64,000 nucleotides of DNA from Cenococcum geophilum (Eukaryota), in contig CP158635.1 of NCBI GenBank assembly GCA_050273025.1, positions 20,894,001-20,958,000 on the forward strand, written 5' to 3'. Below, piece after piece: positions 2,957 to 44,797 of the stretch (position 1 is its first letter; each line of letters begins with the position of its first letter). A program made the translations under genes and the position numbers. The notes beneath the pieces were generated by a model. The model was not told the origin of the DNA, did not search any database, and saw only the letters and a program-made list of their open reading frames with translations.

Positions 2957-3988
2957 TTAAACTATCGCAATTATTAGCGGGTTATTTAGTATAATTTGTA
3001 CTAAAGAAGAATAGTAAACTAAGGCTGTGTATTAACTATAGATAGTTAAACAGCATTACTAGAAAGGATAGATATCCTTTACCCTTAATTAGCAAAATCT
3101 AAGATAGGATAGGCAATGCGTAAATCTTTACAAAGATAGATCTAAGATAGGCGTACTATTAGATTAGAATTAAGGAAGGCAATAAATAGAAGGCAGCCTT
3201 TAGGTTAAAGGAAGGACTATATAAACTATTAGTTATGCAATTCGGGCTTATAAACACACTAGTAATGTTCTAAAAGCGTATTAATAATATATTAGGAGAG
3301 TACTTAGATAAGTTTATTATAGTATATTTTATTATTATTATTATCTACTTAATAATTAAGGAAGAATATAGAGAATACGTTAAATGGGTCTTAAAGAGAC
3401 TATAAGAAGAATAGATGCTAGTAGCAATTAAGAAATACAAGTTCTTTACTAGAAAGACCGATTTTATTAAATTTATTATTAAACTAGGCTAACTTAGTAT
3501 AGATCTAAAGAAGATTAAGGCTATAGTGAATTAGTAAGAACTAGAGAATATTATATAGTTAAGATTATTCTTAGGGTTTTGCAATTACTATAAAAGGTTT
3601 ATAGCGTAATAATTAAAGGATATTAAACTATTTACGTAATTAATAAAGAAAGAAGAACTATAAGTATAGGGGAAGAAATAATAAAAACTATTTAAAAAAG
3701 TTAAAGGGTTATTTACCTAGGAGCCAGTTCTTAAAATCTATTAACTAGGTCTAGAGACGGTTATAAAGACAAATATATTAAACTTTATATTAGGGGTATA
3801 CTTTATATAGAAATATTTAGACGGATGGTACTTAGTAGTATACTATAGTTGGAAAATAACACTACTAGAGTTAAACTATAACATTTATAATAAGGAGTTA
3901 TTAGGTATAATTATAGTATTAAAGGAATAAAGAGCATTCTTATAAGGTATAGAGAAACTATTTATAATTAAGACGGATTATAAGAACT

Positions 3989-6130
3989 GAATATTCACCA
4001 CACATGCAACCTTACCAAAAGGTGGCGCCGCACTTCAAAACTTACGCATACCCATCTTACCATCAAAAACAATCGATTTCCTAACTTTTAAGACCTAATT
4101 CTCACTGCCTAGCGAGCTAGAGGTGGATTTATTTGTCGTTTTACCCCCTTTTCCCCAGCAGAAAATTCTTCTTAGGGGTGGTCCTAGCTTATAAGCGAGG
4201 CACGGACAGGAACACCAAAACTACAACTACTACTACGAATACTAATAGGGGCTAGTCTTTCTACTACCTTTTAGCCTAATCTCCCCAGAAATCTTCTAGT
4301 AGGATTAGTAAGGAGAAAGGGTATAAAGATAGTAAAAACTAGAAACCCCCCTATAAGATATAAAATGCCAAGGCCTAATAGGTCTAAAAAAAAACCTCCT
4401 ATAGAAATAAGTGATGAAGATTCTACATCTACTTTTTCTCCCCCTTCTCCTTCTCCTGGCCCGTTTAGGACAGGAGAAAAAAGAGGACATCCTCAGTCTT
4501 CTCCTAAAAAAGAAAACCAAAAACCTGCAAAAAAGATAATAAAACTAACAACTACTACGGATAGTATGCCTAGTATACCTCCGTCTTCCCTTTCTCCGGA
4601 AGAACATCTACACGAGGCTTTAAGAAGCCTAATCCAGGCCTATAGAGGGCTAGAAGGAGAAGAACAAGAAGAACAAGTTGGACAGCTAATGGACTATACA
4701 CACAATATCCTAATAGGAAAAAACCCCTTTGCAAAAGAAGAAGAAGAAGAAGAGGCAAAAGAGGTCCTAGAAGGACTAGTAGAAGAAGTAAAAGCTCTCC
4801 GTAAGGAGGTAGCTTCTACTAAAAATACTTACGCAGAGAGACTGAAGAAGGACCTCCCTTCTTTTTCGTCCTCCCCACCCTCCTCACCATTACCACCACT
4901 ACCTTCTACCCCTTCTTCTTCTAGTAGGGGTTCTACTTCTACTAGAAGTAAGAAAAAGCAGCTATAAGAAAGGAAACTAGTCCTAATTACAGACGAAAAG
5001 GACCAACCTCTAGATACCTTCTCTATACGAAATAAAGTCAATCAACTATTTGCATCAAAACTGCAAGTAAAAAAGCCAGTTCTAGCGTCTATAGCTAGAA
5101 CTAAAGGAAAACAAAATATTCTCCTTACGACTACAGAAGAGTATAATGCAGATTTCCTAGTCAAATATAAGGAGATCTGGCATAACTGCTTTACCTTTTA
5201 AAGAGAACAAAAACTAGAACCATGGGTTCAAATTATAGCCCATGGGGTTCCTACCCTACCTTTCCTAGGAGAAGGAGGCTCTAAGCTTCTAAAAGAAGAG
5301 ATTGAGACCTTTAATCCTATAAGGATACAAGGACTACCTAGATGGATCTTATCTAGTGAAAAAAGACACAATCCACAGACCAGATTTGGCTCTATAGTTT
5401 TTACTATAGAGAACGAAGAAAAAAGACAAGAAATCCTTAAGCAAAAAGAGATATTAATTGCAGGTACAGCTACTAAGGTAGTAAAGTACCTTAAAGTCTC
5501 TCCTACTACGCAGTGTAATAGCTGCCAAAAATTTGGCCATATAGGAGACAGATGCTTTACTAGGGCCTGTAGATATTATGCGGCTGCACATCTATCTAAA
5601 GACCACTGCTGTCCTACCTGCTTAATAAGCGGTAGGCCTTGCAAGCATACCACCCCTCTTTGCATTAATTGTAAAGAAAAACACTTTGCTAATAGTAGAG
5701 ACTGCGAGAATCTTAGAGCAGCTAAATTAGTACATAGTACTAGCGTAGAAGACTCTATGGAAGAATAAAATTAATAGAAGTCTAGAAGGAGGTAACTCCT
5801 ACTAGGCTTTTAGGTTAAAAGACAGTAGAGAGCAAAAGGACAGAAATAAATTGCAAAAGGACAGGGACAGGGGTTAGGATTTCTTACAGTTTTTCTTACC
5901 ATTTTCTCATTCCCTAGTAGTTGTAGTATCTTAGTATTTTTACTAGGAAACTATAAACTCCTAATTTAGGGGTTTATAAACTACTAGGATATAGCTACTA
6001 GTACATATTAAGCTGCCCCAAAAAGGATTTATGTATATAGAACTATAGCGCCATAGCCCAGAGGCTGCATGCGCAGTATTGTACGTAGTATAATACAATG
6101 GATAAAAAAAAAAAAAAAAAAAAAAAAAAA
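3989..6130 (+). mobile_element. Non-autonomous LINE derivative carrying only ORF1, with poly(A) tail
   Basis: 13-bp TSD gattataagaact (3976-3988 / 6131-6143) and poly(A) ~6104-6130. The 3' ~330 nt match the LINE end at ~28780-29130. Confidence 0.92.
4365..5768 (+). pseudogene. LINE ORF1 (gag-like, three C-terminal zinc-knuckle-like motifs), one RIP stop at 4965-4967
   Basis: ORF 4365-4967 continues in frame past TAA (from CAA) to CNSCQKFGHIGDRC, CRY(C)AAAHLSKDHCC and CINCKEKHFANSRDC, with stop at 5766-5768. Confidence 0.88.
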
Positions 6131-7809
6131 GATTATAAGAACTTAATAGGATTCCTAATAATAAAGGAACTTAACTAAAAACAGGTTAGATAGGTAGAGA
6201 TATTTATAAAATACTATTTTAAAATTTAGTATACTAAGGGTATAGATAATACGCGGGCTAATGCGTTAAGTTAAAAGGCTAAACTATAAAATAATAAAAA
6301 GCCATTAAGGGCTTTACTACGAAAAGATATAAATAGGTTAATTAAATATAATTATTTAAAGATCGCAGCAACTTAGGAAAATAAGTTAGATAGAATTTAT
6401 AAGTTACTAAAAAGCTTTTAGGTATAGAAAATTCTAAAAGTATAGCTAGAAGATCAATAAACGAATATATATAAAAACTAAAAAGTAAAGTATATCCTAA
6501 AAAGCATAGTAGAGTACTTTATAGAAGATTTCTATAAGGGACTAACTTAAGGATATAATAGAGCTATAGGATTAGTATTAAGACTCTAAGAGGAGTATAT
6601 TATTAATAGAATCTAAAAAATAGCTAGGAGGGTTACTAAGGAGTATCTAAATTATTAAAGAAATAAACTAATAAGGCATAAACTATATAGAGGGCTATAA
6701 CCTATTAAAATACCGAAAAGACTATAGGAGGTCATATTATGGGACTTTATTATTAAGTTACTAAAATTAAGAGATCCTATTATAGGATAAGATTATAACG
6801 CGATCTTAATAATAGTGGATAAACTTATAAAGTAGGGATACTTTATAGCGTGTACAGAAGAAATCTTAGCGGAAGATATCGCTAAAATCTATATTAAAGA
6901 AGTGTTTGTAAGATATAGAGCACTAAGTAAGATTATATCGGATAGGGATTTAAGATTTATAGCAGTATTTTAGAAGGTATTCTTAGCAGAGTAAGAAGTT
7001 TAAGTAGTAACTTCTACTATATATTATCCGCAGACAGACGGTTAAATAAAAAGACTAAATTAGACACTAGAGTAGTATTTAAGGCACTATATTAATTACG
7101 CATAGAATAATTAGGTATTATTATTACTAGTTATATAATTTGCATATAATATAACACCTTAAAAAGGAATAGGCACTTTACTATTTAAGGCAAATTATAG
7201 ATATAAGCTAAGGATATTATTATTACCACATTAAGTAAAGAAGATAAGTAGTATAGTAAAGTAAAGAATAGATATGTTAATAAATCTTTATAAGAACCTT
7301 ACGGAAATAGTAAAAGTAGTATAGTAAAGGATAAAAAGATACTATAACGCTAAGAGATCTAAGGGACTAGATCTTAAGGAGGGAGATAAAGTATGGCTAC
7401 TATACAAAAATTTTAAAAGTTAATAACTAAGTAAGAAGTTGGACTACGTTAGACTAGGACCTTTTAAAATCACATAAAGGATTTTACTAATCACGTTTAA
7501 GTTAAACCTACTAGCCAAAATAAGAATCTACCCTATATAGTATATTACAATGCTAGAGCTAGTATATAGAAATATTAAGCTGCCGGTTTATAAAGTAGAT
7601 ATATATAAAGGGCAAGAAGAAAACAAATAATAAGTTTTAAAAATTGTTAGTTATAAGGACGTAGATAATAAAATATAGTATAAAGTAAAGTGGATAGGCT
7701 ATAATAAGACTACCTAGGAATCACTAGAAAATTTAAAGAACGCTATAGGAAAGATACAGGAGTATTAAAAGAGATTAGGTTAGGTAATATTATTAAAAAA
7801 GGATTAAAA

Positions 7810-8406
7810 AAGGAGTTACTTAAGGGGGACCCAGGAGGAACAGCTACTAAACTATTTAGACTTATTTCCTTTATAGGGGAGTCCGTTCTTTCGTCACTAA
7901 GTTCCTATAAACCTTATTCTATAAGCTTCTACTCCTTAAAACAGACCTTTTTATAAACCTATTTAAGATATAGAAGATAAGTAAAGGCCAAAAGACGAGT
8001 CTTAAGGGCACGCTGTTAAGTAGCCGCAGCCTTTTACTCCGCCTCTCGCGATTAATATAACTTATTAAAGGCGCTTAAGAGCTTACTATTAAGCTTTATA
8101 GCAGTAAATTAAACACGAGACCCTATAATAAATTACTTAGGGAACTTAAAAATTATTAAAAGTTATAGGACGTGTATATTTAGCGTTAGAAATAAAGTAA
8201 ATATTATAAGATAAATAAATATTTACTTTAGTACACTCTAAATAAGAGGAAGGTTGCCAAGATAAGGGACTTACTAGCGTAATATAAACTAACCTCTTTT
8301 TCGTATAATAAGAATACGGAGATGGCATTATTTTACCTAGTAATAGTATAGCAGCAATAGTGCGAGCATATTAAACTGTAGAAGAAAGAGAAATTGCTTT
8401 AGGTAT
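7810..8406 (-). pseudogene. Antisense Zn2Cys6-like plus coiled-coil gene inside Gypsy family A 3' region (copy 1)
   Basis: Two-copy consensus with 42985-43576 gives a C-x2-C-x6-C-x13-C-x2-C-x8-C pattern. Three of six Cys codons are seen directly and three are inferred from TAT/TAC. Confidence 0.6.
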
Positions 8407-8936
8407 AATAAGTAATAATATTAACTAAATTAATTAGACGGATATTACACCTTTAGTTAACAACTTAGAGATATTTAAAATCTTTAAGGATAAAGATAGA
8501 GAGGAGGGAGATAGTATTACGGACGCTTTAAATATAATATTATAACTACTTAGAGAAGAGTTAAAAGAAGCTAGTTAGTTAATATAGGCACAGTCTAAGA
8601 TAGAGCCGGTAGAACTATATAATAAGGAATAGTAACTAAGTTATATAATATAATCTATATAATCTGTATAATCTATATAATCCGTAATAAAGTAAATAAA
8701 GTATACATACCTTACGTATAAGGAGGGTTTCCTAGGAGTACGGTTATATATTTAAAGGACCATAATCCTTACTCTAAATAGTTCTTTCCTTATAGTAATT
8801 TTCAGAATATAATTAGAGTTAATCTATTAGGCAACCACTCCACTAGTTATTATTACGTTGTTGACTTACTTGTAATACCTACACACCTAGCCTAATAACG
8901 AGCCCATCGTAGTTCTTACTATAAGGTTCCGTTATA

Positions 8937-10560
8937 GTCCCTATAAAGATCCCGTTTTTAATAACTATAAGCTGTTTATTCTAAGTATAGGTAAAACCTT
9001 AGCCGTATAAAAGGGCTATTAAAAGGAGTTAAAGAAGTAAATATATAATATATGGAATACTAAAATATAAGGCTATTTAAATTACTTACAGCAAATATAA
9101 AGGCAGAACTGTTGGTATTTAAGCATATCTTATTTATATTACGTTCTATATAGGGTCCATTTCCAGTACCCTAATAGGACCAGTTTTAGGAGCTAAGCCT
9201 AAACTATTTATTAATGCTATTTACTTCCAAATTACGTATATAAGATACTATTCCGCTATATTCCATTAAATTAATCTATAGAAGCAGCTCTCCTCCTTAT
9301 TTAAGTTCTATTTCTAAATCTTAAGTTCTATTTTACTTTAACGTTTAGTAATCTCCAGTTTACTAAGCTAATTTACATAATACTTTAGCGGAGGAATAAG
9401 TGTTTACCAAGTCCGCCCACCTAAGCCTACTTTACTATCCCACTACCCTAAAACACACGCATTAATAAACAGTAGAATATTAAGGCTGCCTAGTACTACC
9501 CCTTTTTCTTTAGCCAAGTTATGCCTAGATAACTTCCTTAGCATTCTTATCTAAAAACTACACTCCCTTCCTCTCCTTTAGAGCTTTTACTAAAACTACT
9601 ATAAGCCGCTTAACCAAACTCGTGTAAGGCAGTAAGGCTTTATATCCACTACTAGCTATATCCTTACCACCCCTCTAAGGGGTAGTTAATTAGCAGGTAA
9701 AGCGGGGTAATCCCTTTAGGCAATGTCCATATATAGACATCTTAGAGATATATAGGCTAGTAGGCTAAATAGGATCCGCTAGGCAACTAAGGTCTACTCT
9801 AATTGTTAAAGTTATATATATCACCAGGGGTTTAAGTAACTATTTAACTGCATATAAATTTCTATATAGGTAGGCTTAGTTGCTTTTACCGTCTAGCCTA
9901 AGCTATAAAGAGGATTAGTATTACTTAGCCTAGCTCTATTCTAACCACCCTAATATAATCTTAGTTTTGTTAGGCCCCTAAAGCAAGTAAGTAATCTAAG
10001 TAGGTTTACTATATAGCTAGACCTTCCAGCTTAAATAAGTTAAGGGCTCTATTGTTTTAAATAGAATGTGGGACATTATATAAGCTAATTAGGTCCTATT
10101 TATTACTTCGCGATTAAGACCTAAGGTACTCTCTTAACTTCCACTAATCTCCCCAAACTAATGTCTTTAAAAAAAGCTTAAGAGGATAGTGTATATAGGT
10201 AGTTTTAGCTATATCTTATTAAGCCACCAAGCAGATTAGAATCTTTATATATATCGCTAGCTATTATTTCTTCTCTTAGGCCTTAAGCATAGTTTCTTAC
10301 TGGGCGTAGTGGGGTTTATAGGCTAGGATTATTGTTATATCCGCTTATCTAGGTATTTAATAGCTCTATAATAGAGTAGATTGGTTGCCTTTATATTAAG
10401 TATTTAGGCAGGTAAAGCAAATTTTAAGTTAATTATAGCCGAGCTCCTAAGCCATAAAATAATAATCTATCAACTTTTTAATTAGCCCTAGGGTTTAAAA
10501 AAACGGTAGAAAATATAGGGGGGTAGAATTTGGCTTTATATAGAGGCTTAAAGTTAGTTT
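8937..10560 (-). other. RIP-degraded probable coding region of unidentified type
   Basis: A long minus-strand frame contains only TAA/TAG (RIP-type) stops and ends at a gtaagt donor-like site (~9090). No family was recognised. Confidence 0.3.
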
Positions 10561-15713: not shown

Positions 15714-16280
15714 TAAACAGGCATCAGATTTAAAGAATTAATAGCTATATACGGCTGTTATAGAGACTTAAGAGGATTACTAGAGAGCTTGAGAGAAATG
15801 CAGCTGCGCCCAAATTTATATAGGGACAATTAGGGTGGATAAACTATTTGCTAAGCGATATTAAATAAGGAAAGAAAACCAGCTACGCGCACGGCGTAGC
15901 GCATGGAACGGCAGTCTCGTAATAGGTATAACTATTAGTCTTTATATATTAAAATATTAAAAGCAGATTCTAAGCTATATAGCTTATACTATATAATATA
16001 TAACGTGTTTTATTATTACTTACTATTACTAAAATACCCTCTCTACTAGGTATATCTAATAGGTATATACTTTTATAGGCGTTAAGAGCACTATATACTC
16101 TTACCTAGCTAGGGTAGTAGGCTAAACTTATATAAGATCTTATTTAGTATTAATCCTAAAGCCTAATAATTTAAGGAGTTAATTAGCTTATTAAAGGGTA
16201 TTAAATAGTAATATATTTAGCTATTATACTTATAAAGGGGACTTGGGACTTTATATAGCTAATTAATATTAAAAATAAAA

Positions 16281-16365
16281 GCCCGCGAAGCCCTACTGTA
16301 CGCGTCCACGTTGCCGCGGGTGGAAATATCATCAGGAAACCTTACCTTTTGATGGTTAAGTGCAG
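16281..16365 (+). ncRNA. HDV/CPEB3-like self-cleaving ribozyme fold (this copy probably inactivated)
   Basis: P1 gcccgcg/cgcgggt (G.U at cleavage site), P2 ctgtac/gtgcag, P3 gcg/tgc, L3 tccacgt, P1.1 cc/gg, P4 tcatcagga/ttttgatgg and J4/2 ttaa (expected ctaa). G1 coincides with the insertion's 5' junction. Confidence 0.85.
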
Positions 16366-16563
16366 AGGCGATGGTAGAGAGCCGCCGCAGCGCATGCAGC
16401 GCGCTGTCGTTGTGGTTTTGTGGTGTTGAGCTCGCGACGCGTACTATTAAAGTATCGCCCTTAACAACACTAGAGCCTTACTGCCTCCATTTAAGGCTCC
16501 TGCTTTACCACCTAGGGAGGCCTATTAAGGGATACTGGGATACGAAAACCACCTAATGTACGA

Positions 16564-16690
16564 CTACCTGGCTTATAGCCAGGCCCGAAACTGGCCTTAT
16601 TATTAGCTAGTTAATATAGACGCGTCCTAGTCGCATAACAGGACACCCTTAGGCTTGTACTAGCTCTGAGATCGCAAGACGAGGGCGTAG
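16564..16690 (+). ncRNA. Candidate type II hammerhead ribozyme variant with a hairpin inserted at core position 7
   Basis: gccc-GAAA (16583-90), stem I agctagt/actagct, CTGA (16666-69)-gatcgcaagac-GA-gggc. Stem II is extended by ctac/gtag. The cleavage triplet att (16602-04) is inferred from GTC and stem III is imperfect. Confidence 0.5.
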
Positions 16691-19600
16691 GGAAACCCTT
16701 TTTTATAAGAACTTGTTAAGGTTAACGCGTTACAGATAAACCTCGTACGAAACTTATTAAGGCCCTAAGGCTACCGCGAAGAACTTATTAAGGCCCTGCC
16801 TAGAGAACTTATTAAGGCCCCTCTACGAGGGCCTATTTGGTATTTGGTACTCCTAGGTAACTTAGAAGAGGGTCTTAATAGGCGTGGTGCGCGCGACCTA
16901 GAGACGCGATAATGATATAATAGCGACGCGACGGCGATTAGACGGCTTAACGAGGTGGAAATATAGGCAAAGCTCTAGGCAGCGGAAACACAGGCCAGCT
17001 TTGACGGCCCTATAGCGTTCGACATACGGTTAACCTATAGGTGACTTACAGGAGGGCCTTAATAGGCGTGGTGCACGTAACCTGCGTATATATATAGGGG
17101 AGGCTCTAAGGAAATATAGGCTAGTTATATAAGGACTCGATAGTTAGAGATATAGGCCAGCTTATATAAAGGGGGGATATAAGCTTAATTAGTAGAATAG
17201 GGTAGGGTAGGTTGCCTAGTATAGGACCTAGTCTATAACCTATTCTGTAAGGCACGGTCGGCCTATTATAAGGAGACTCTTATAGGCAACGCGAAATAGG
17301 AATTAAAACCTCCCGTAGGGCGTAGTATATAGTAGCCACTGCTAGCTTTAGGGACCTTACCCCTTAGCTAGGCTCTAACCCCTAGTATACCTAGTAGGTA
17401 GGTAGGATTACGTCCTAGCTGGAGAGACTACTATACGGCTTAAGAGAATAGATACGCGTATTGGTATACTAACAGACGGGACTGCTTACTAGGGTAGTAC
17501 GCTAGTAAGGTATACTTAAGGAGTAAATAGGAGTTACTTGGGCGGGAGAGGTTTTGGCTAGGCCTTGATCGTAGAAGGTATACCTAGCTATATTACAGGA
17601 TGTAGCTATAACGCCCTTATAGGACTACACTAGTAGGCGCGTAAGATAGGAGTTGCGACCCCTATAAATGGTAGCTTATGCCCGCGCTAGTGGAAATAAT
17701 AAAGAAAAGCGTAAAACTAGAGGCTATAGAAGGCTCCTAAGCCGTATAAAAGTGTACTAACTTTAGGAGGAAACTCTTATATAGACCGCTGGGGGGTAGA
17801 TTAGTACTTGGGCTAATCCCGTTATAAGATATCTAAAAGAACTAGTGAGAATCCCTATATTAGGTAGTGGTAGCTAACTGCTTATAGACTAGGACTAAAG
17901 TATTAGAAAACTAGGGTAGAGGCCTAAATAAATAGGTATATTAAACTTTACTATATTACTAGCTAATATATAACTACCTACTATAAATTAGCTTTTATCT
18001 ATTTGTAAGGAACTAGGGCTACCTATAGTGTTTACGTAATAGGTAGCTACCTTCCTTAGTAATAGAAAGCTATAGCTTTGCTTTAATGGACAAATATAAA
18101 AAAAGGTAGATGTTACAGTGCTGTAATGAAGTAGACTAAATAGCTACGTTGTGGTATAAAGAGGGGAAGAAGGTGGAAAGGGGGTATTGTATACAAATAG
18201 TAGGGCTAGCCGCTAAGTCACTAGTGGTGGGCTAGCTAATAGTAGGAAATAGTATAAGATAGTATAAAACAGTATGTATTAGGTCAGTGCCGTAATAGTA
18301 CTCCTCTCCCCTAGATGGTTTGGTCCCTAAATTAAATAGATAACTTAAAAATAGGCAGTGTATAGGGTTACCTATTTTTTTTTTTTTTACTGTAAAGATG
18401 TTAATTCCGCTTACCGCCCTTAACCGAGCTAATGGCGATTTTCTATACCGGGCATGGAAAATCCTAATTAGTTAGTTTAGTGAGTAAGGTTGGTAGAACT
18501 CTATACCGCCACCTAAATTAATCCGCGTGGCGTTTCTTGGCAAGAATTTGGCTAATTAAATAACTTTAACTGCTAGTTAAAGTTCTATAACATCTTAACC
18601 ACCACAAATTTTAATACGGTGGTTGGCTGTGACCTTAGCGTAACTTTTCCTTATCTTATACTTAGTCTAAGGGTCTTGGCTTCTTAGGGTGTTACTTATA
18701 AAAGCGCTATATGGCTTATTTATAACCCCTTAGGTCTTCCTCTAGCTGCTAGGTTATGTCCTTATAATATTTCCATTTAATCTTATAAGTTAGGCCCTAG
18801 GGGTCTTTGTTGTATATATTAAGGATTTTCTTAAACTCCCATTTGTCTTCTATGTTACCATTATTATTTCTCTCTACTACTTATCCTTGTATATTACGGC
18901 GCTCTATAGTATTAATATTTACTTAGCTAGGGATCTTTTTAGTAGCCTAGAGGCGGACCTTAGATATATAAAAGGATTTATTTACTTAGATATAGTCTGG
19001 GAGGTCTACTACGACTACCCTTTAGTATACTGCGAGTACGGGGTATAGGCCGTCCCATTTATCGTCCTATTTCTTCTTAGGTCTATTTATCTTTATATTT
19101 TCTAAGCTAACTATAACTATATCGCCTTCGTAGAATAACGCGCTCTTATCCCTACGGGTATTAGCATTATCTTTATAGCGTTACTATAAAATCCGGGCTA
19201 GGGCCTTAAGCTATGTTAATATCTACTTAAAGCGGTTAGCCATAGAGTCTGCGCGGAAGAACTCCCTCTTTACTTATACTAATAGTATTAGTAGGTAGGG
19301 GCCAGCAGGCTTAATTCCAAGGCGAGGGTTAAAGCTATAGTTTACAAAAAATGGGAAGATGCCTGTGCTCTTATTGACTTGGTTATTTGTAGTAAACTTA
19401 GTAAGCGGCAGGTAGTTAACCTAGTTATCCTATATAAAGCTAACAAAAGTATAAAGGTATTTATTTACGGCAGCGTTAATAATTTTAGTTTAGCCGTCCG
19501 TTTCTAGGTACTAGGCTAAGCTTAGTTATAAGGTTGTCTTAAGGCGTTTACTTAGTCGTTGCTAGAAGTCGCTAACAAATTATATACCGCGATTAGAGAT

Positions 19601-20029
19601 AATCGTGCTTGGTATACTATAGAGCTTATATATATTATTAATAAAGCTATTAACTAGCTCCTCTATTAAGAGTCCTGTTACTAAAATAAGGTATTATATT
19701 TTAGTTAGGCGGTCTATAATAATAAGGATATATTTATATGCCTTACCGTGGCGTTAGTATACTAGCAGCGTTATAATATAGTTAATTAAGATATTAGTCT
19801 ATAGGCGGGCGGGTAATTTTAGTAGCTTTAGGAAACCGGGTGGGGTAGAATAGGGGGTCTTAGTGCGAAAGTATAGGGTATAGTCTTTAACGAAGGTAGC
19901 TATAAACTGGGAGATTCCTAGCTACTAATATATTTAGTTTAAGAGGTTAAAAGTTTTAACCCGGCTAGGGTAACTAGCGGGGCCGCTACTATAAGAATGA
20001 TGGGTAACTTCTAGGTGGAGGTCTAGGGT

Positions 20030-21408
20030 TTTTTTTTTTTTTTTTTTTTTTATATCCGATTGTATTATACTACATACAATACTGCGTATGCAGCCTCTAG
20101 GCTATGGCGCTATAGTTCTATATACATAAATCCCTTAGGGCAGCTTAACATATACTAGTAACTAAGTAAACACTCTGGCCCGTTTTAGATGCTAGGGGAG
20201 TTTTATCCTAGTATTTTGCTCTCTAATATTTAGTTTGCACTAAGGAAATAAAGAAATCCTGGCTCTTTTATCTATTTCTGCCGTATTCTGCCGTTCCTAG
20301 AGTAGAAAAAGCGCTCTAAAAGATAGATTTAGTAATATTTTTGCATATAAAAACAAAGGGCTCTATATAGTTTGCCAGCTTAGAGACAACTACCAGTTAT
20401 TCCTATACAACTTTTTTTGGTAATGTGACCTATTTCTTCTCCTTGCTTAAGAATAGGTAGGGAATTAGTAATTAATAGCTACTCTTCCCAAAAGTAGGCT
20501 ATTAATCCTAGATTTACGTTCTAGAAAACGGGTATTTTATAAGGGCGAACCTTGCTATATAAACCCACCCTAAAAGGAAAATTTTTCACAAGGTTGTCTT
20601 GTATAGGTTATAAACACCAATTCGCCTATACACCTTATATTTTACGTGCTAAAGTAACACAGGCCGGCCCCTTTCCCCCTACTATAGCTACCCTAGCAGT
20701 GCATCGTCTGCGGTGCCTCTGCTATGCGCCTGCGGTGCCTCTGCCATACGCTTATAGTATAGTAATTGCCTACAGCGCGACAGCTATAGACTAGTTATAG
20801 GGGATGAGGTCGTCTGCTCTATGGCAGACTGGTTATAGGGGAGGAGGTCGTCTACTCTGTGGCAGACTTATTGTAGGGGAGGAGGTCGTCTACTCTGTGG
20901 CAGATTCGTTATAGGGGAGGAGGTCGTCTACTCTATAGCAGATTCGTTATAGGGGAGGAGGTCGTCTACTCTATAGCAGATTCGTTATAGAGGAGGTCGT
21001 CTGCTCTGTGGCAGATTCATTATAGAGGAGGTCGTCTGCTCTATGGCAGACTGGTTGTAGGGGAGGAGGTTGTCTGCTCTGTAGCAGACTAATTGTAGAC
21101 AGGGTCGTCTGCTCTATGGCAGACTGGTTGTAGGGGAGGAGGTTGTCTGCTCTATAGCAGACTGATTGTAGAGGGGGTCGTCTGCTCTGTAGCAGACTGA
21201 TTGTAGAGGGGGTCGTCTGTTCTGTAGCAGACTGATTGTAGAGGGGGTCGTCTGCCTTATGGCAGACTGGTTGTAGTGGAGGTGGTTAGTTGTTGTGGTG
21301 ACGCGTCGTGTGACGCGTCCTCAGGGGGTATATAATCGGCGGCGCCCCTGCGACGACGGCGGAGGAGCAAAGGGAGGCGACGGCAGAGACGAAAGGGAGG
21401 CGACGGCG
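20030..21408 (-). mobile_element. SINE-like retroposon with LINE-derived 3' tail and tandem hairpin array
   Basis: 13-bp TSD ggaggtctagggt (20017-29 / 21409-21) and poly(T) on + at ~20030-20051. 20052-20163 matches the LINE 3' terminus at ~5995-6104 and ~29020-29130. No ORF. Confidence 0.9.
20790..21280. repeat. 13 tandem 35/38-bp units each containing a 7-bp-stem, 4-nt-loop hairpin (gtctgcY-NNNN-Rgcagac)
   Basis: gtcgtct/gttgtct at 20809, 20847, 20885, 20923, 20961, 20996, 21031, 21069, 21104, 21142, 21177, 21212 and 21247. Confidence 0.9.
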
Positions 21409-24400
21409 GGAGGTCTAGGGTATTAGGGACGAAGAGATATTAGCGGAAGTAGATCTGTCCGTTAATAATATTATATTCTAACTTATTATAATGGAGTAAT
21501 TTCCTAATCTTCTTTAGCTAATAGCGAGCTTTCTAATTATATAGGGCCGCTACTATATCTCTTACAAGTTTATTCTCCTAGTATCCTAGCCAGATTAACT
21601 TATTTAGTGACTTTTTGGCTATTTTAGGGTCTAGAGCGGCTATAAACTTTACGTTATTAGAATTACGGGACTTATATAATAATTCTTCTAAGATTATAGG
21701 GTTAACTTTCTGGGGCGGTATAACGACTTAGGCTTAGTAGCGGAGGCGTTTATTATTGGCGTCCTTAGGCCTTATTTTTAGTAGCCGGCTTAGGGCGTTA
21801 GGGAGCGTAGCTTTGCTACTAGGTCTATATATAATTATAAAGTTAAACTATAAAAGGAACTCTGCCTACTGGACTTGGCGCTAATTTAGCTACTTAGTAG
21901 TTATAAACGTCTATAGGTTCTTATAGTTAGTAATAATTTTAAACGGCTCCTTAGTCCCTTGCAGCTTAGGACGCTATTCCTTTAAAGCCTTAATAATAGC
22001 TAAGAGTTTTTTATTATAGATTTTGTAGTTATACTTTAGCGTAAAGTACTTTACGGAGAAGAATACGACCGGTCTTAATTTTCTGTTATTATTATACTGG
22101 GAAAGGACTCTGTCGGAAGCCTAATTTAATACATCTATCTCTACTACTGTTTTCTTTATATAGTTATAGTATGCTAGTACTAGTGCTAAAGTAAAGGCTC
22201 CCTTAAGGGCCTTAAACGATTTAGCTTATTCTAGTCCCTATAGCTATCCAATATCCTTCTTTAGGAGTTTTGTTATAGGTATAGCGATAGCAGAGTAGCT
22301 TTGGATAAATTGTTAGTAGAAGTTCGCAAAGCCGAGAAATTATTATAGTTCTTTAATTAATGTCGGGTCCTTCTATTTTTATAAGGCCTATACCTTCTTA
22401 GGGTCTATAGTTATGCTATTAGTTAAGATAATTAAGCCGAGGTATTTTGTTTTAGTAGAGTAAAACTTAGACTTATTAATATTAATCTAAAGTCTAGCAT
22501 TACCAAGTCTTTGGATAACTTCATTTATATACTTAGTATGCTCGGCGCGTATTTTAGAAAAGATAAGGATGTTATTAAGGTAGACAGTGCAGTAGTTATT
22601 AAGGGCGTTATATAGAATATAGTTAATATAATTCTAAAATATAGCGGGTGCGTTATAGAGGCCAAATAGTATAACTAGTATTTTATAGAGTCCGAACCGG
22701 GTAATAAATGCTATAAGCTACTTATAGCCCTTTATAATCTAGATCCGGTTAAACGCAGTAATTATATTAAGTTTAGTAAAGTACTTAGCACTATAAAGTA
22801 CGTTAAGTATCTTGCCGATTAGTAGTAGTGGGTACCAATTTTTAATAGTAACTGTGTTTAGGCCTTAGTAGTTATAGTAGATTTATATACTACCGCCGGG
22901 CTTAGCAGCGAGGAAAAGTAGTGCGGTAGCTAGTGAGGTTAATTTGCGGATAAAACCCTTATCTAGCATCTTATTAATCCACTTCTTTACACACCTAAGT
23001 TCAGCAGGTAAGAGTAGTCTATTTTTATAGTATAGGGCCTAGTTTCCGGGGATAATCTTAATTTTATGGTCCCATAGTTGGTAAGGGGGTAGCTTATCTG
23101 CGTTCTTAGGGAGGAAGTGCTTAATATATTTATAAAACTCCTTTAGTAGGCGTTATAGAATGTCTTCGCAGGTTAATCCTAGTTTGCTTTTTAGGAATTT
23201 TTTAACATTAATATTAACTATCTTCCAACGTAGAAGCTTGGGTTTAGTTTTTAGATTTATCTTAAGGAAGTTATAAAAATAGGGGGGGAGTACTTTACGG
23301 GCTTCCTTTATTATATAGTTGCCTTTTACTAGCCAGCGGAAAGACCTTTCTAATAGGTTTGGTACTTCTATTAGGCCTATAGGCAGCTCTTTAAGCAGCT
23401 ATTAGTGCTTATCTTATTTAACTAGTTCTACTAGCTTCGCTATATAGATCCTTATTACCTTTATATCTTTTTATTTATAGAACTAGGTAAAATTAATAGT
23501 ATAAGTATATTTAATATTATCTAGGTTAGGGCGTATCTAGTTCTCCGGTGCTACGGCTGGGCTAGTATAGCTTAGTCAGCCTAGGGGGGCGGAAACGAGG
23601 CGGCGGCCCTATATAGTACGCGCGGGAAACGGGTATAAGGTTAGGTATTATAGTGGCGCGGTTTCTCTTATTCGGGTCTTAGTAGTTCCATAGCCAGTCC
23701 TTATTATAACGCGAGCTGTAGTATGCGTATATAGCATATAGCTTAGTTCTAGGTATTAGGCTAGGCGGCTAGGGTTTAAATAGTACCTAAATTGGGGTTA
23801 GATTCTTAGTAGTGGCGGCATAAAGCGGACCTTCTTTCTAGGTCTCGGCAGGGCTGGCTAGCCCGTCGTTTTAGTCTTAAGTACTAAGGTAGTCCAGTCT
23901 TCCGCTATTTTATTTCTTTGCAGCTATATAGGCTCCCCTTTATTAGAAACGTCTTTTACTATTAGGGCTTTATATATAGTTCTAGGCACTAAGCTTAGTA
24001 GTGCTAAGTATCTATATAGGGCGTCCCTACTACCATTAGTTATCCCCTATAGGAGGTAGTGCCTAAAGCAGTAGTCTAAGTTAAAGCGGATCTTAAGTTT
24101 CCTAAAGCTAGGACGGGGCTTATATTTCTAAAGCTAAAGCATACCTAAGATAATTAGGGTAGTAAGCGAGAGTTTAGTAATAAAAAAGAGCATGGCTTTA
24201 GTATAAAGGCCAATTAATATTTAGGTGGTAAAGTAGTCTGTAATAAGCGAAGTTAGGATACTATCTGCGAGGCGTAGTGGCCTAGGTGCTAGCAGCTTCT
24301 TAGTTATAACGTTATACTTTCTTATAATAGACTCTATATTAATAAATGCCATTACAGTACTACCGGAGTCTATTAGGCTTACTATATTAATATAAACTTA

Positions 24401-26563
24401 GGGGTATAGGTTATATAATAAGGAGAGTTAGGTTTAAATAAGGATTAATTTCTTATTACTGTTTGCTAATCTAAGATTAAGTGGCAGCTTACTAATAAAA
24501 AAAACTAATTAATCTAGTAATAGGGACCTAATCTTCTTATCTTCCTCTTTATATAGTTTAGACCCTTAGACGCGACTTAGTCTAAGGGTTTGCCTTTTAA
24601 TAACTAGGGTATAGGGCTATCTTAGCGGGGCGGTTTAGTGTCCGTCTGGCTAGTAGTGTCGGTATTAGTCTTAGTCAGAGTATAGGAAGACAATACCTCG
24701 CCGACGATATAGCTATGCTTATATTTACTAGCGCGGAGTCGCTAATACTAGGCGTTGTTAACGGGTTAAGCTCCTATATAGGGTATAGTTTGGAGTAACT
24801 AAGCCGTAGGGTTAAAGGGGGGGGTTATCCGCTGCGGCTATAATAGGCTCTATAGTTGCCGCGTCTATAATAAACTCTACGGTCGCCATGTCTGCGGTTA
24901 TTAGTTTGCGTTATTTAGCGGGGTAGTATTAGGACTAGGTTTACTGTCTTAGTAAAGTTATAGGCGTCCTTCTAGTAGCTAGGTAGGCTATAGGTAAGGT
25001 ATAGTCTATTATTAACGCGGCGCTTATATTCCGTATCTGAGATTCCATTAAGGTCTATAGGTTCTTTAGTTATTACTAGGGTTAGGGTTAATATAGGGGC
25101 AGAGGCTTAGGTAGGTAGGCGGTAGTTAGCGTTCTTCTTAAGGTTAGCTTAGTGTGCATAGTTCGCGAGGTTCTTAGTAAATATATCTATCTGCTTATTC
25201 TAACCTATATAGTTACTGTTATTGATTTTATAGGTAAGTCTAAGTACTAGCTCTTCTATCTTTAGAGAAATAAACTTTTAGAGTAGGTCTACCTTCTATT
25301 TATCTATTTTTTTGGCGCGGACTATTAGCTTATTAAGCTCTCCCTTCCAGGACTAGTAATTACGCTCGCCCTAGGGGAAATGGTTAAGCTTATTTTTTGC
25401 GACCTAGGTCGTATTAAGGACCTCGTAGTAGGTAGTAAGGTCTTTAAGCATATCTTCCTTAGTAGGCCATTTCCATGCAGATATATTGTTTGGGTTCTTA
25501 TATATAAGCTCTAGGCCCTACTTAATAAACTTATAGGCCTTGTCCTTTAGTATATCCGAGATATAAAGGATCTGGGACTAAACTATATTAAAGTAGTCCC
25601 AGTCCCAGTTAAAGACTCCCTTAATCTTAATATGCCAGGTTTTAAAATTAGCTTATCATTCTAGCGGGGTGCCTTTTCCGCTAAATATTAGTAGGTCTTT
25701 AGATCTCCGTTTTTTCTGCTAGGTTACTACCGTTATTATAAGGGTTGATTATTTTAAAACGGCGATAGTCTCTGCCTGGGAGTTAATAGTTCCTATTTAA
25801 AAAGCGATAAGGGCACTAAGGTTTTCGTTAGCTTTTTTATTGGCGGTGTTTGTATTATATATATACTATAGTCCTATTTTAATATTATTAAGGAACTCGT
25901 TGGTATAGTTAATAAGGGTAAGGTAAGCTTTGCTAGGCTTAAAGGTTTTAGGGTATAGTAGGGAGCAGCGGATTGTCTATGTAATATTGGGGTATGTCTC
26001 TATAAAGAGGTCTATAAAAACGTCACAGGAGTTTTAGGTTTTGGCTATTTTAGCATCATTAGTGTCGCCTATATAGGCATTAGGTAAAAACTAAGGATCG
26101 TTTTAAGACTATGCTGGGGACGTATTAGTTTTAGCAGAGGCGCGTATAGGTCGCGATTGCTCTAGAGTAGAGGTTAATTGGCTAGGGTATAAGGAATTAG
26201 TGATCGCGATGGGGCGTAAATTAAAGATACTATAAACTGTTATAGTGCTGTAATAAAGTAGACTAAATAACTACATTGTGGTATAAAGAGGGGAAGAAGG
26301 TGGAAAGGGGGTATTGTATACAAATAGTAGGGCTGGCCGCTAAGTCACTAGTAGTGGGCTAGTTAACAGTAGGAAATAGTACGAGATAGTATGAAATAGT
26401 ATGCGTTAGGTTAGTGCCGTGACAGTAGAAATAGAAACAGGGATACTATAGGGTTTGCCTATATCCCCTATTTTATTTCTATTATATATACATAATATCT
26501 GCAGCCTATAGATAGAAGGAGCCTATTCCCTTAGCTATATGGACGATTTTGTAATTACGGTTA

Positions 26564-26997
26564 ACGTGATTTATAAGCCAGTGGCCTATATAAGTAAGTG
26601 GCCCACCCCACCTAATACGCGACGCGTTATTTAACAACCACCTAAATGGCACTACAATAGCAAGAGGCCCTTTTTCGAGAGGGTTGACCTAGGTGTTTAA
26701 GCCTATAAGCTAGGCTAAATTATATCCTTACGAGGTGTCGAGAGGGCATATAATAGAAGGGGGTAGTAGAGGGGGCAGCGGTAGTGGCGGAGTGACCGTA
26801 ATAGGTAGTGCGCAAGTATAGTATGTGTAAATTAGCAGAATATATAGCACGTACGTGCCCTAGACGGTAGGCAACTAGCGTGTAGATAGCTACACTAAAT
26901 ACAGTTATTTATGGTTAAATAATTGTCCTGTTTTGCGATCGCGTGTTTAGTAGGGTAGGCTACTTGCTTATGTGGGCTACTAGCTTATAGATTACGT
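26564..26997. mobile_element. Short non-autonomous pogo/Fot1-type element (MITE-like) inserted just after the LINE YMDD motif
   Basis: TA TSDs and ~45-bp TIRs acgtgatttataagccagtggcc.../...ggctactagcttatagattacgt. The LINE frame is restored on removal. Confidence 0.88.
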
Positions 26998-29197
26998 TAC
27001 TTTGAACTCAGCTAAATCTAATTGTAAAAAGCTAGAGGGAATAGCGCTAGAGCTAATGTCTAGAGCTAAAGAAGCTGCTATTAGTTTTAATATTAGTAAA
27101 ATAGAGCTTATACACTTCTATAGTAAGCGTACTACTATAGAAGAAGGGCTAAAGCTAGGAGATATAGAAATATCCCCTAAACCCCTAGTTAGGTGGCTAG
27201 GGGTATTTCTAAACTCTAAGCTTACTTTTAAACAATATATAAAAATAAAAATCTCTAAAGCAAAAACAGCCTTTTATTTAATTAGAAGACTAGGTAATAT
27301 ATAAAGAGGTCTATCTCTATAAGCTCTACGACAGCTCTATATAGCTTGCGTTACTACTATAGCAGACTATAGAATATAATGCTAGTAGAAAAGCAAATCT
27401 AGAAACTACCTACTAGCTAGGTACTAATCTCTATAAAATAAGGCCCTAAAACTAGTCTTAGGAGCGTTTAAAGGACCTCCTACGCAAGCTATAGAAATTG
27501 AGGCCTTTATCCCTCCTCCTAGAATTAGATTTAAAAAGCTTTGCAATAGCTATATATTAAGAATCCTAAAATTTAAAGAAAACCACATAATTAAGAAGGC
27601 CTATATAAAAGAGATTAATAAGGATAGGGAGGAACTAGTAACTAGTTCTAGTTCTAGTCCTAGCCCTAGAAACTCTACTATAAGACACCTTCTATAGCCA
27701 AAAACTTAACTACTATCTCTAGCTTCTAGAGTCTAGTAACTAATTTAAAATTGGAAAATAGAGAGAATCTCTCTAGATTGGCAAAAACCGTGGTCTCCCC
27801 CTATTTCTGCATTCTTTTCTATCTCTAGGGGTAGTAAAGAAGAAGCTGTATAAGAACATTTAAGACTAGTAGAAAATCTATAAGAATTCCTAGAATGGGA
27901 CCTAGTAGATATATACTATATAGACGGCTCTAAAGATAGTAAATTAAGTGTAGCGGCCGTATGTAAAATAGGGGAGAGAAATAGGATTAAATACGCAATA
28001 AATTGGAATTTAGGGCCTTATATGGAAATTATAGACGCAGAACTTTATGCAGTCTATAGGGCCCTAGAATATCTAAAACAATAAAGACTAGAAGAGAAAC
28101 AAGTTTATATCTTTATAGATAGCTAAGCAGCTATTAAAAGATTACAGCTTAATTCTCTTATAGGGGGACAAGAACTAGTCTTTAAAATTACGCAAAGCTG
28201 CTCTTATCTAGCTAGTAAGAATATCTCTATTAACTTTTATTGGGTTCCTAGCCACCTAGAAATCTATAAAAATAAAATAACAAATAAGCTAGCTAAAAAG
28301 GGCCTCTCTAAAAGAAAAATATAATCTTCTTATACATCCCTAGCCTATATAGGGAGAGCAGCAAGAGAAAAAATACTAGAATAGTGGAAAAGCAACTAGC
28401 AACAGAAAAAAAATAAAGGAAAATACTATACTAGGATCTCTAGAAGAAACTACTCTTTATCTCTTAAAGCCCTTAAGGATAAATATCCTAAAAGGTTATA
28501 ATTAGCTTTATATCAACTAAAACTAAGAAAAGGCTTCTTTAAATCCTTCTCTAAGACAATAGGGAAGGATAAAGAAGGTAGATGCTTTAAGGACTATAGA
28601 GCTATATAGACTCCTAAGCACCTATTACTAAAATGCAGACTATATAGGGGAGAGAGAAAAGAAATGTAAAGACAACTAAGCTCTTCTCTCTCCCTAGAGA
28701 AGCTCTTTTGTACAGAGAAAGGAAAAAGGGCGCTCTTCCTATTTCTAAGTAAAACAGAAATAGCTACTAGAAAGTGGCTAATAGAAGTAAAAGCTTTAGA
28801 AGGAGGTAACTTCTACTAAACTTTTAGTAAATAGATAGTAGTAAGTAAAAGGATAGAAATAAACTATAAAATGTATAGGGGCAGGTATTAGGATTTATTT
28901 ACCATTTCTTTTACTATTTTTCTACTGTTTTAATACTACCTAATAGTTATCGTAACCTAGTATTTTACTAGGGAGCGGTAAACCTCTAGTCTAGAGGTTT
29001 ATAAACTACTAGGATATAGCTACTAGTATATATTAAGCTGCCTAGAAAGGATTTATATATATAGAACTATAGCGCCATAGCCCAGAGGCTGCATACGTAG
29101 TATTGTACGTAGTATAATACAATAGATATAAAATTTTAAAATTTAAAATTTAAAAAATTTAAAAAATAAAAGTAATAGTACCGTTAGAGGTATATTA

Positions 29198-30715
29198 TAC
29201 AAAGGCGCGCGGCATTAAATTTGACCTATATTTAAGCGAGCCTCACCAAAGTAGAAATGCGCATCACGAAAAACACCTTAAATCGCGATTCAACCCCACC
29301 AAAATCTAAGTACTACCCGTGAAAATTATTTCTACCTTTGTGTTCTATAATAAGGGTATTAATAGCTGCCATTCTGGCAACGAGAGCCCTAATCTTTGCC
29401 TATGGGAGGTCATCCCACGCACCTCTCCACGCTCTATCCGTCCATTCTAGAGTATAAGGGGCACCCCATTGCTGAGTTATTTGAATCCTCATAGGCATCC
29501 AAGCTCCCTCAATAGCGTTTATATTAGGGGAGTTGCCTATATACTCTAATAACGGGATACCTTCTTTCTTAAGGAGGCGTAAAGTCCACTTACTAGAGTA
29601 TAAGGGAGCGTTATCTTACTAAAAGACGTAGCTAGGTTAATTACACTTAAATATATCCAGATTATGCCGTTATAACATAATCTCTTTATAAAAAGGAATT
29701 AAGTATGGTATAATCACCTCGTATAAGTAGCGTATATTGTCTACGCCTCCTCTACTGATGATTCTTCCAATATATCTCCCAACTGGCCCTTTTTAACGGA
29801 AATCTCTGCCCTTTAGCTGTCCACTTAGCCTCCTTATCCTTCTCTTATTGTGCAAACTCTACCTAACATTTAACTTCTAGCTCCTCCGTATTAAGTGTCT
29901 CAATCGCATCTTTATAGGTCTGCTTTTAGTTAGCAGTTTTGGGGTAATATATATAATAAGGGCCTTTTTAATCGTACGTAAAGCATCCCCAAAACATTAC
30001 TTCTAAGTAGTTATTATACTGGCGTTTAATGCAATCAGGATGATAGCGTTTATTAGGAAATCGTGATATATTCTAGTATCCTTACTTTACGAAGACAATA
30101 ATAGAAGCTTCGTCCAAGAAGATAACCATTCTCTACTCTACTAGACCCCAATCCTTTCGCGAGAGTGCTACCTTATATCTTTATACCTCCTAAATGTCCG
30201 TAAGACCTAACTTCTTTATGCTTTTAGCTCTGCGAAGGCCTCTTTCGCGGAGCTTCTTCTCAATCATACGGCGGTGGTAGTCGAAGAATCTATCCTCCTT
30301 TACGACGACGTGCCAAAGCTTCTTCCGTTGTTTCTTATTTAACGTATAACTTTCAACTAAGTTGGTAATCTCTTAAACTAAGGTTTGAGGCTTCGCACCT
30401 AATCCAGGCTTCCTAGCAACTTGCTCTTTAATCGTAGGGGTAGGGAGACCAGCTTCTTCACACTCTACCAGGAAGGCACCAACGCGCGCTCTAATCTTTT
30501 TAGCTGTGTTTATATTAATTCCAGCTCGTCGAGCAGCCTCTGCAGAATGCACGTATTGTAGGTGGGTCAAATATTCAATCTTCTGGCCTTCCGTAGGTGG
30601 TGGAGCCATAAGTTCCGTCTCAGTAATTATCTTGGTGGGGTTTGCTAAGAAAAAATTTCGCTAATAAAATACCTCGGCAAAATATGGGTCAAATTCAATG
30701 CCGCGCGCCTTCGTA
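29198..30715 (-). mobile_element. Tc1/mariner DNA transposon, transposase 30609->~29313, lightly RIP'd
   Basis: TA TSDs and ~36-bp TIRs tacaaaggcgcgcggcattaaatttgacc / ggtcaaattcaatgccgcgcgccttcgta. Motifs VIF.DEAS, QDNAP and NSP..NAIEGAW. Confidence 0.92.
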
Positions 30716-44106: not shown

Positions 44107-44797
44107 GGTCCCCTTTAGCTATATACGCTAGTGCTAAAAGCTAGAGATAATAGCCAGCATTTCTTTATTATAGATATGGTAGTTTAGCTTAGCATTTATT
44201 ATAGTCTTTAAATAGTATATAATAGGGTGCTATTCTCTGTCTAGTTGCTTCTAGGAAAAAATACTAGCTATTACGCTATTTAAGGCATTAGTTTCTAGTA
44301 TTAAGGGCTGTTTTAGGTTAAAATAAGTAAATAGGGGAGCCGATACTAGCCGTTTCTTAAGCTTATTAAAGGCCTGCCTATATATAGCGTTAAAGTAAAA
44401 GGGTTAGTCTTTTCTAGTAAGACGGTTAAGAGGCCGGGTGATTCTACTATAGTTTTTAATAAAGTGTTAGTAGAAGTTATAAAACCCTAAAAATAATTAT
44501 ACCCCCTTTACGGTCCGTGGGGGTGCCTACTAGTTAATTACGGCCGTCTTCTTTAGGTTAGTTTTAATTCCGTTTATACTAATAATAAAACCTAGGTACT
44601 TTATACGCTTAATACTAAACTTTAACTTCTTAATGTTAACCTAGAGGCTAGCCTTGCGGAGCTGTTATAGGACTTTATAGACGTGCTTCTTATATTCTAG
44701 CTTATTCTTAGAGTAGATTATAATATTATTTAAATAAGCTGTATAAAAGTCGTTAAGGTAGTTAAAGAGTATATTATTTATATACCGCTAATATATA

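Follow-up and report, generated by a model that had tools for sequence, protein, structure and literature searches.

Does the segment at positions 16281-16365 of the window, by which we mean the whole stretch of 64,000 nucleotides analysed here, descend from an HDV-like ribozyme, and what kind of element does it introduce? We consider it probable that this segment is a decayed copy of a family-wide HDV-like ribozyme that makes up the first ~85-89 nt of a 1.7-kb non-coding retro-module in a RIP-affected fungus, and that the insertion to which it belongs is a template-switch chimera.

Read from the letters of the window, 16281-16365 runs GCCCGCG-AAGCCCTA-CTGTAC-GCG-TCCACGT-TGC-CGCGGGT-GG-(P4)-TTAA-GTGCAG. 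This direct reading bears out the initial annotation, which had claimed that every helix of a nested double pseudoknot is present in order: P1, P1.1, P2, P3 and P4 follow one another as such a fold demands, each at the place proposed for it, and the cleavage-site pair is the G.U that had been named, formed by G16281 and T16321 (Table 1). P1, about 7 bp long, lies directly 3' of P3/L3 with the cleavage-site place at its 5' base; this pair is GU in eight of nine copies of the family and AU in the remaining one. In loop L3, UCCACGU, the bases U16305 and G16310 match the reverse-wobble feature, and the two-pair feature of P1.1 is present as well. The conserved U and G in L3 of HDV-like ribozymes form a reverse wobble, as described in an excerpt of PMC3774820.

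Table 1. Coordinates of the predicted ribozyme, of the module that it heads and of the insertion containing both, in window numbering.
Feature	Position	Strand	Details
Candidate left TSD	16271..16280	.	AAAAATAAAA; directly before G16281
HDV-like ribozyme fold (predicted)	16281..16369	+	helices read from letters; pairing in nine copies; sole descriptor match in the window
P1	16281-87 / 16315-21		GCCCGCG / CGCGGGT; 7 bp, G16281.T16321 at base
J1/2	16288-95		within the HDV-like fold; letters between the P1 5' strand and P2, AAGCCCTA
P2 extension	16290-92 / 16367-69		GCC / GGC; suggested by RNAalifold; 27 of 27 cells paired in the nine-copy alignment
P2	16296-301 / 16360-65		CTGTAC / GTGCAG; 6 bp, one U.G
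P3	16302-04 / 16312-14		GCG / TGC; 3 bp
L3	16305-11		TCCACGT; U16305 and G16310 present
P1.1	16306-07 / 16322-23		CC / GG; two pairs, L3 with the two bases after P1
P4	within 16327-16354		hairpin; best-kept register 16327-31/16350-54, 45 of 45 cells paired in the nine-copy alignment
Second private change	16344	+	A in the window, T elsewhere; breaks a distal P4 A-U pair (pair 57-65)
J4/2	16356-59		TTAA; four bases, T16356 at the catalytic place
Catalytic cytosine place	16356	+	T in the window, C in all other copies seen
Non-coding, highly repeated, transcribed 5' module ('unit')	16281..17975	+	depth jump, RNA reads, no coding signal
15-nt repeat	17952-17985		at the module 3' end; TRF
Tad1-like LINE ORF2 piece 1, 5'-truncated	~17976-18110 (tblastn 17986-18114)	+	aa 643-685 of P0014; frame by eye against P0001
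Nested LTR retrotransposon	18111..26424	-	LTRs ~18111-18300 and 26238-26424, 91% identical
LINE ORF2 piece 2	~26430-26562	+	aa 685-728 of P0014, YMDD box included; tblastn 26431-26562
MITE-like insertion, ~433 bp	26563..26995	.	gap in the tblastn map, inverted arms
Rest of LINE	26996..29161	+	ORF2 aa 728-1311 with RNase H to 28777, 3' UTR, A/T-rich tail from ~29126
Candidate right TSD	29162..29171	.	AAAAATAAAA just after the LINE tail; not cleanly separable from the A-rich tail

How far does the fold by itself exceed chance? A loose descriptor, which we wrote ourselves along the outline of published HDV-like descriptors and which accepts C or T at the catalytic place, gave the site at 16281 as its single match on both strands of the window. 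When the window was shuffled block-wise by dinucleotides, 4 of 60 shuffles also gave one or more matches to this descriptor, and for this reason the fold taken alone stands only modestly beyond chance. The nested-only minimum free energy (MFE) of the site is no better than that of shuffled sequence (-20.6 versus a mean of -20.8 (-20.81) kcal/mol; z 0.07), and the nested MFE structure puts a different small hairpin where P3 would be. The site is raised above chance by its family, because the latter shows a sharp 5' boundary at G1 and carries C at J4/2 elsewhere.

The Rfam covariance search that the initial annotation had proposed returned no family at the gathering score, either for the window or for the family copy L007. 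The whole window matched no family at gathering scores, and 16150-16500 gave no match at E<=10. Curated HDV-like covariance models are narrow and do not contain pseudoknots. For L007, the best Rfam match was RF02682 (HDV-F-prausnitzii), with 14.1 bits against a gathering score of 44 and an E value of 1.9. This model, from Faecalibacterium prausnitzii, is the only one in Rfam that aligns L007 end to end (1-74) and in register with the helices, and in this sub-threshold alignment the GGCUAAG around the catalytic C of L007 is identical to the model consensus. The score lies below the gathering score, so L007 does not count as a member, and the likeness may be called suggestive, not significant.

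The extent of the family was read from three DNA contig sets (X1, X6 and X5) and one RNA-seq run (X21) mapped on 15900-18200 at a likeness of at least 80%. The summed contig depth of X1 rises from 482 (16131-16207) through 3822 (16208-16284) to 77215 (16285-16361), which is an increase of about 160-fold within 150 bases; the step is also seen in X6 and X5, and the jump is placed at 16281-85. A highly repeated family therefore starts at about 16281. Single copies were collected by a metagenome scan with a core pattern covering 16294-16329, in which C/G was opened to Y/R (only transitions were allowed). The scan returned eight loci, whose core is present by construction, while the P1 5' strand, P4, J4/2 and the P2 3' strand were left free. 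One of the eight, L004, represents the window's own locus as found in another sample, with 99.56% identity over 5036 bp and a shared flank. The seven independent loci all have unrelated upstream flanks and similarity that starts exactly at G1; none of them extends 5' of this point. Among the eight distinct insertions (seven loci and the window, with L004 dropped as a duplicate), ungapped identity has a mean of 0.32 and a maximum of 0.50 over the 40 nt upstream of G1, and a mean of 0.73 and a minimum of 0.50 over the first 40 nt of the element. In all eight, the predicted cleavage site equals the family 5' boundary to the base. The initial annotation had taken this point for the natural full-length 5' end of the element. 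The shared exact 5' end agrees with that claim, whereas a full-length autonomous LINE does not follow it, ORF2 aa 1-642 being absent.

In a nine-sequence alignment of the window with the eight metagenome loci, 90.9% of 243 cells are paired in the structure as initially annotated. With the refined P4 register and the P2 extension, 94.4% of 270 cells hold standard pairs, compared with 30-53% for slid partners. RNAalifold, which considers nested structures only, recovers P2, P1.1 and P4 unaided. Eleven pairs change on both sides, nearly all by GC-to-AU transitions. We rejected covariation as a proof of selection, as RIP on both arms yields the same pattern without selection; the excess of two-sided changes over shuffles may reflect heavy versus light RIP among the copies. 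A strict descriptor is passed without mismatch by one of the eight metagenome copies, namely L004, which has C at the catalytic place, and each of the seven independent copies shows transition-type disruptions of this descriptor.

The catalytic place itself sets the window apart from its family. At 16356, C is found in every other copy seen: in 39, 27 and 24 contigs of the DNA runs X1, X6 and X5, in 8 of 8 RNA reads and in 8 of 8 metagenome loci, the same-locus copy L004 included. All eight loci read C(T/C)AA at J4/2. The catalytic-C feature is absent from the window copy and present in the family, and because all other copies seen have C, the T of the window is a private, derived C-to-T change. 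No contig among the three DNA runs carried the T allele, and T16356 may be an assembly error. The base that other copies have in place of A16344, T (20, 16 and 13 contigs of X1, X6 and X5, and 6 of 6 RNA reads), restores the A-U pair of distal P4. An R2 ribozyme lost its cleavage when the catalytic C was exchanged for U, as reported in an excerpt of PMC3774820. We predict that the window copy is dead, that is, an inactive ribozyme, because it combines U at the catalytic place with the broken P4 pair; judged by its sequence, it is a disabled member of the HDV-like class.

That C16356 had been changed to T by RIP was part of the initial annotation. The derived C-to-T change stands, and RIP is only a plausible cause of it, since T16356 lies in a CpT context and RIP favours CpA. 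The RIP indices of the module are 2.18 for TpA/ApT and 0.46 for (CpA+TpG)/(ApC+GpT), against about 1.0 for both in the window's genic parts; the call of strong RIP rests on the thresholds for these indices. The window and L004 are separated by 21 substitutions, all of them transitions, and one indel. Some of these differences have a non-RIP direction, as at 17540, where the window has G while L004 and the family have A. Of 469 variable places in X1, 427 are transitions.

What does the putative ribozyme head? Relatives of a 106-aa frame at 26984-27301 include the 1317-aa P0014, which has APE, RT and RNase H domains. A tblastn search with P0014 on the window covers aa 643-1311 only, with an E value of 8.75e-147 for the LINE 3' part, and the junction between module and LINE is fixed to within about 10 nt, near 17976. 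The LINE is interrupted by two later insertions. The nested LTR retrotransposon has TG..CA ends and a 5-bp TSD, GTAGA, at 18106-10 and 26425-29, and contains RT_RNaseH_2 at 21977-22120(-) (Pfam, E 1.8e-08); other LINE copies cross its insertion site uninterrupted (loose end at 18110). The MITE-like insertion, whose 61-nt arms at 26562-26622 and 26939-26999 are 79% complementary, splits the LINE RT just past the YMDD box. The LINE 3' end can be aligned to another copy, which lies at 5783-6146 and ends in poly(A). Minus the two nested insertions, 16281-29161 is, as far as its letters tell, a chimera of a full-length module and a 5'-truncated Tad1-like LINE, and the mark of a full-length autonomous LINE, APE together with a complete RT downstream, is absent from the insertion. 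Independently of this, the LTR retrotransposon was seen to carry a tandem array of 35-38 bp at about 20750-21320.

Upstream of about 17976, tblastn with P0014 found no similarity to ORF2 aa 1-642, and neither tblastn nor Pfam detected an APE or N-terminal RT in 16281-17985. Pfam was searched on 95 stop-to-stop ORF pieces, and those of the module (16281-17985) gave no match; its longest open frame measures 67 aa in the window, L004 and L007 copies. We regard 16281-17975 as a non-coding module, and not as the head of a full-length LINE, because it shows no ORF2 similarity, no Pfam match and no long frame. ARAGORN found no tRNA in 16000-18200, where a tRNA-derived, SINE-like head was looked for, and self-BLAST found no second module copy within the window. 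Other copies align as far as 17965-17981, after one or two of the 15-nt repeats, and then diverge. RNA of the family is represented in run X21 by 368 reads covering 16285-17978, with approximately zero beyond. These reads have the first mate mostly on the minus strand, which corresponds to plus-strand RNA in most stranded libraries. At a depth of about 7, no pile-up of RNA 5' ends was seen at G1. The module also contains an internal direct repeat (16854-16899 and 17038-17083, about 184 bp apart, 85%). RNA depth peaks on this repeat (16853-17083), and in other genomic copies joints 'go back' 149-169 bases there; the repeat number at 16853-17083 therefore differs among copies.

The whole had been described as a TSD-bounded insertion with G1 right after the left TSD. 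The 10-mer AAAAATAAAA does occur on both sides, in line with a template-switch chimera, but as a TSD it is weak: it is a low-complexity A/T sequence with four occurrences on the plus strand of the window, and on the right it adjoins the A-rich tail. A TSD search with an 18-mer and 3 mismatches gave nothing useful, the 10-mer alone matching. No direct repeat was found in the window around the LINE part alone, and no empty site for the insertion was found.

Comparison of the copies reveals that the module is joined to two LINE families at three points, in all three copies with identifiable downstream sequence. In the window, the junction falls at about aa 643-655 of the first LINE. In L001 and L007, a second, more distant LINE family, oriented like the module, comes next, with joins at window-equivalent 46136 and 47709, or roughly aa 823 and 307 of the second LINE. 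This family is present in the window at about 45894-47534 on the minus strand and has 26% identity to P0014 over aa 378-900. When the loci were searched with P0014 by tblastn, which has too little sensitivity for the RIP-worn second LINE, only L007 gave a match, and a weak one (E 0.17). The sequence after the module is not recognisable as LINE in L008, and in four copies the module is interrupted earlier by other insertions.

The most likely origin of these joins, by analogy with known chimeras, is that a LINE reverse transcriptase left LINE RNA for module RNA as its template. Copies of the module would be transcribed by read-through from whatever lies upstream, and the ribozyme would cut just 5' of G1 to leave an RNA starting exactly at G1. 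The LINE reverse transcriptase would begin on LINE RNA, switch to module RNA, giving a chimera of module and truncated LINE, and copy the module RNA to its G1 end, so that each new copy would have the same first base. The resulting chimeras would be bounded by TSDs. We further put forward, tentatively and as a possibility that we would not yet favour, that the module is a ribozyme-headed, promoter-independent ncRNA that uses template switching to parasitise two or more LINE families, giving re-releasable chimeras of the MINE/WEIRD type. In L003, the second LINE family is represented by its 3' part at 1199-2487, and only about 66 nt separate the end of this part from the module G1 downstream; with the two placed head to tail like this, transcription could read through into the ribozyme.

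These joins can also be looked at from the side of the LINE. Suppose that the ribozyme is real and that an autonomous LINE has the module as its native 5' leader; the chimeric copies would then be deleted or recombinant non-autonomous derivatives, like R2 SIDE. Non-autonomous R2 derivatives by internal deletion do exist, to judge from a title cited in PMC6765202, and the loci, at 5 kb or less, are too short to exclude a full-length parent among the nine copies. We nevertheless judge a native leader unlikely: the module joins two different LINE families at three internal points, the second LINE copy at about 45894-47534 (minus) has no module nearby and the window no second module, and the family RNA stops at the module 3' end. 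Were the module instead an independent SINE-like element, with LINEs inserted later and preferentially at its 3' end, two insertions would be involved. The 15-nt repeat at that end could serve as their target, and the unrecognisable sequence downstream of the module in L008 fits such a history. The candidate TSD, however, flanks module plus LINE, no direct repeat surrounds the LINE part alone, and three LINEs, all 5'-truncated and in one orientation, would have to have inserted at a single spot; of the explanations considered here, we give this one the least credence.

A more sceptical reading takes the fold for a chance look-alike and traces the common G1 to an internal promoter start or another repeat boundary. 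It can point to the loose descriptor matching 4 of 60 shuffles, to Rfam finding no family, to the MFE z-score of 0.07 and to pair changes that are explicable by RIP. It would have to accept as coincidence that the predicted cleavage site meets the 5' boundary to the base in 8 of 8 distinct insertions, that all other copies have C at the one place where it is required, and that L3 (U..G), P1.1 (CC/GG) and J4/2 (CNAA) all match active-site features. In addition, a full-length, in-register alignment (with copy L007, below threshold) was obtained with a single Rfam model, and that model is HDV-like. We hold a chance resemblance to be very improbable.

We therefore return to the reading in which an HDV-like ribozyme heads a non-coding module that was fused to LINEs by template switching. 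HDV-like ribozymes have been described at the exact 5' end of the non-LTR elements R2, R4, Dong, Baggins, RTE and L1Tc, and also in some non-autonomous retroelement derivatives (excerpts of PMC6765202 and PMC3774820); the general statement of the initial annotation, that such ribozymes define the 5' ends of many non-LTR retroelements, is established by the same sources. Common to these ribozymes and the fungal module are the nested double pseudoknot, a cleavage site (predicted in the module) just 5' of G1, and a G1 that is the first base of the element, and the family here shares the catalytic C of J4/2 and the U/G pair of L3; the presumed role, release from a read-through co-transcript, is alike (PMC6765202, PMC3774820, in the parts cited). 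The host, in contrast, is a fungus, whereas the retroelement ribozymes in those parts come from animals and a trypanosome, and the ribozyme here, whose activity is a prediction, stands on a non-coding module and not on a LINE with ORFs. A further difference is that no Rfam HDV-like model matches the window or L007 at threshold. The module ribozyme would be a fungal addition to this established class. One fungal HDV-like ribozyme is mentioned in passing in an excerpt of PMC3774820, which shows that a fungal occurrence of the class is already on record. In the literature searched, which was incomplete and contained no Repbase-type resources, we found no paper on an HDV-like ribozyme heading a fungal retroelement, and none linking such a ribozyme to MINE/WEIRD-type chimeras.

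To our knowledge, no ribozyme is known for WEIRD. MINE of Magnaporthe consists of the full-length, 1.1-kb non-coding WEIRD RNA fused to MGL fragments (230-5461 nt; 28 sites), has TSDs of 10-20 bp, and was explained by RT template switching, no solo WEIRD copy having been found (excerpts of PMC2104539). The excerpted text of PMC2104539 mentions no ribozyme in WEIRD. Resemblance to the present insertion lies in a full-length, expressed non-coding RNA of about 1-2 kb on the 5' side, and in a variably 5'-truncated LINE on the 3' side; MINE also has many junction points and TSDs around the whole, which the candidate TSD here would match (PMC2104539). Here, too, a non-coding copy stands head-to-tail with a 5'-truncated LINE and the junctions vary; unlike MINE, the module has two LINE partner families, only three junctions are seen and the TSD is weak. 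The module is likened to WEIRD on the published description (PMC2104539).

Ribozymes of the HDV-like class that trim retroelements to a precise 5' end are established in animals and trypanosomes, and fungal examples are barely documented in the literature searched. The locus adds a high-copy fungal family in which the predicted cleavage site falls exactly, to the base, on the boundary of the repeat, and since it occurs naturally in an active-looking form (C) and a disabled one (U), it provides a ready-made experiment. A ribozyme on a module fused to truncated LINEs would link ribozyme processing with the long-unexplained MINE/WEIRD chimeras. If this holds true, the ribozyme at the head of a chimera could free it again from whatever read-through transcript contains it, and the orphan 5' modules of fungal chimeric retroelements would owe their exact 5' end and their mobility to this hitherto missing feature; WEIRD-like RNAs of other fungi might hide the same fold. 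The family also illustrates the erosion of a structured RNA by RIP, which proceeds mostly from GC to AU and from GC to GU and keeps many pairs. In the window copy, erosion struck the one base that matters for catalysis, with RIP as a plausible cause.

The surroundings of the insertion are rich in other repeats. To its right, fragments resembling Tc1/mariner-type transposases were recognised by eye at 29400-29615 (-) and 30373-30660 (-); they gave no Pfam match. Large dispersed repeats, 84-92% identical, at 2954-8941 and 36071-44112 fill much of the remaining AT-rich part, and GC-normal, RIP-free genic sequence begins at about 31000 and again at about 60000.
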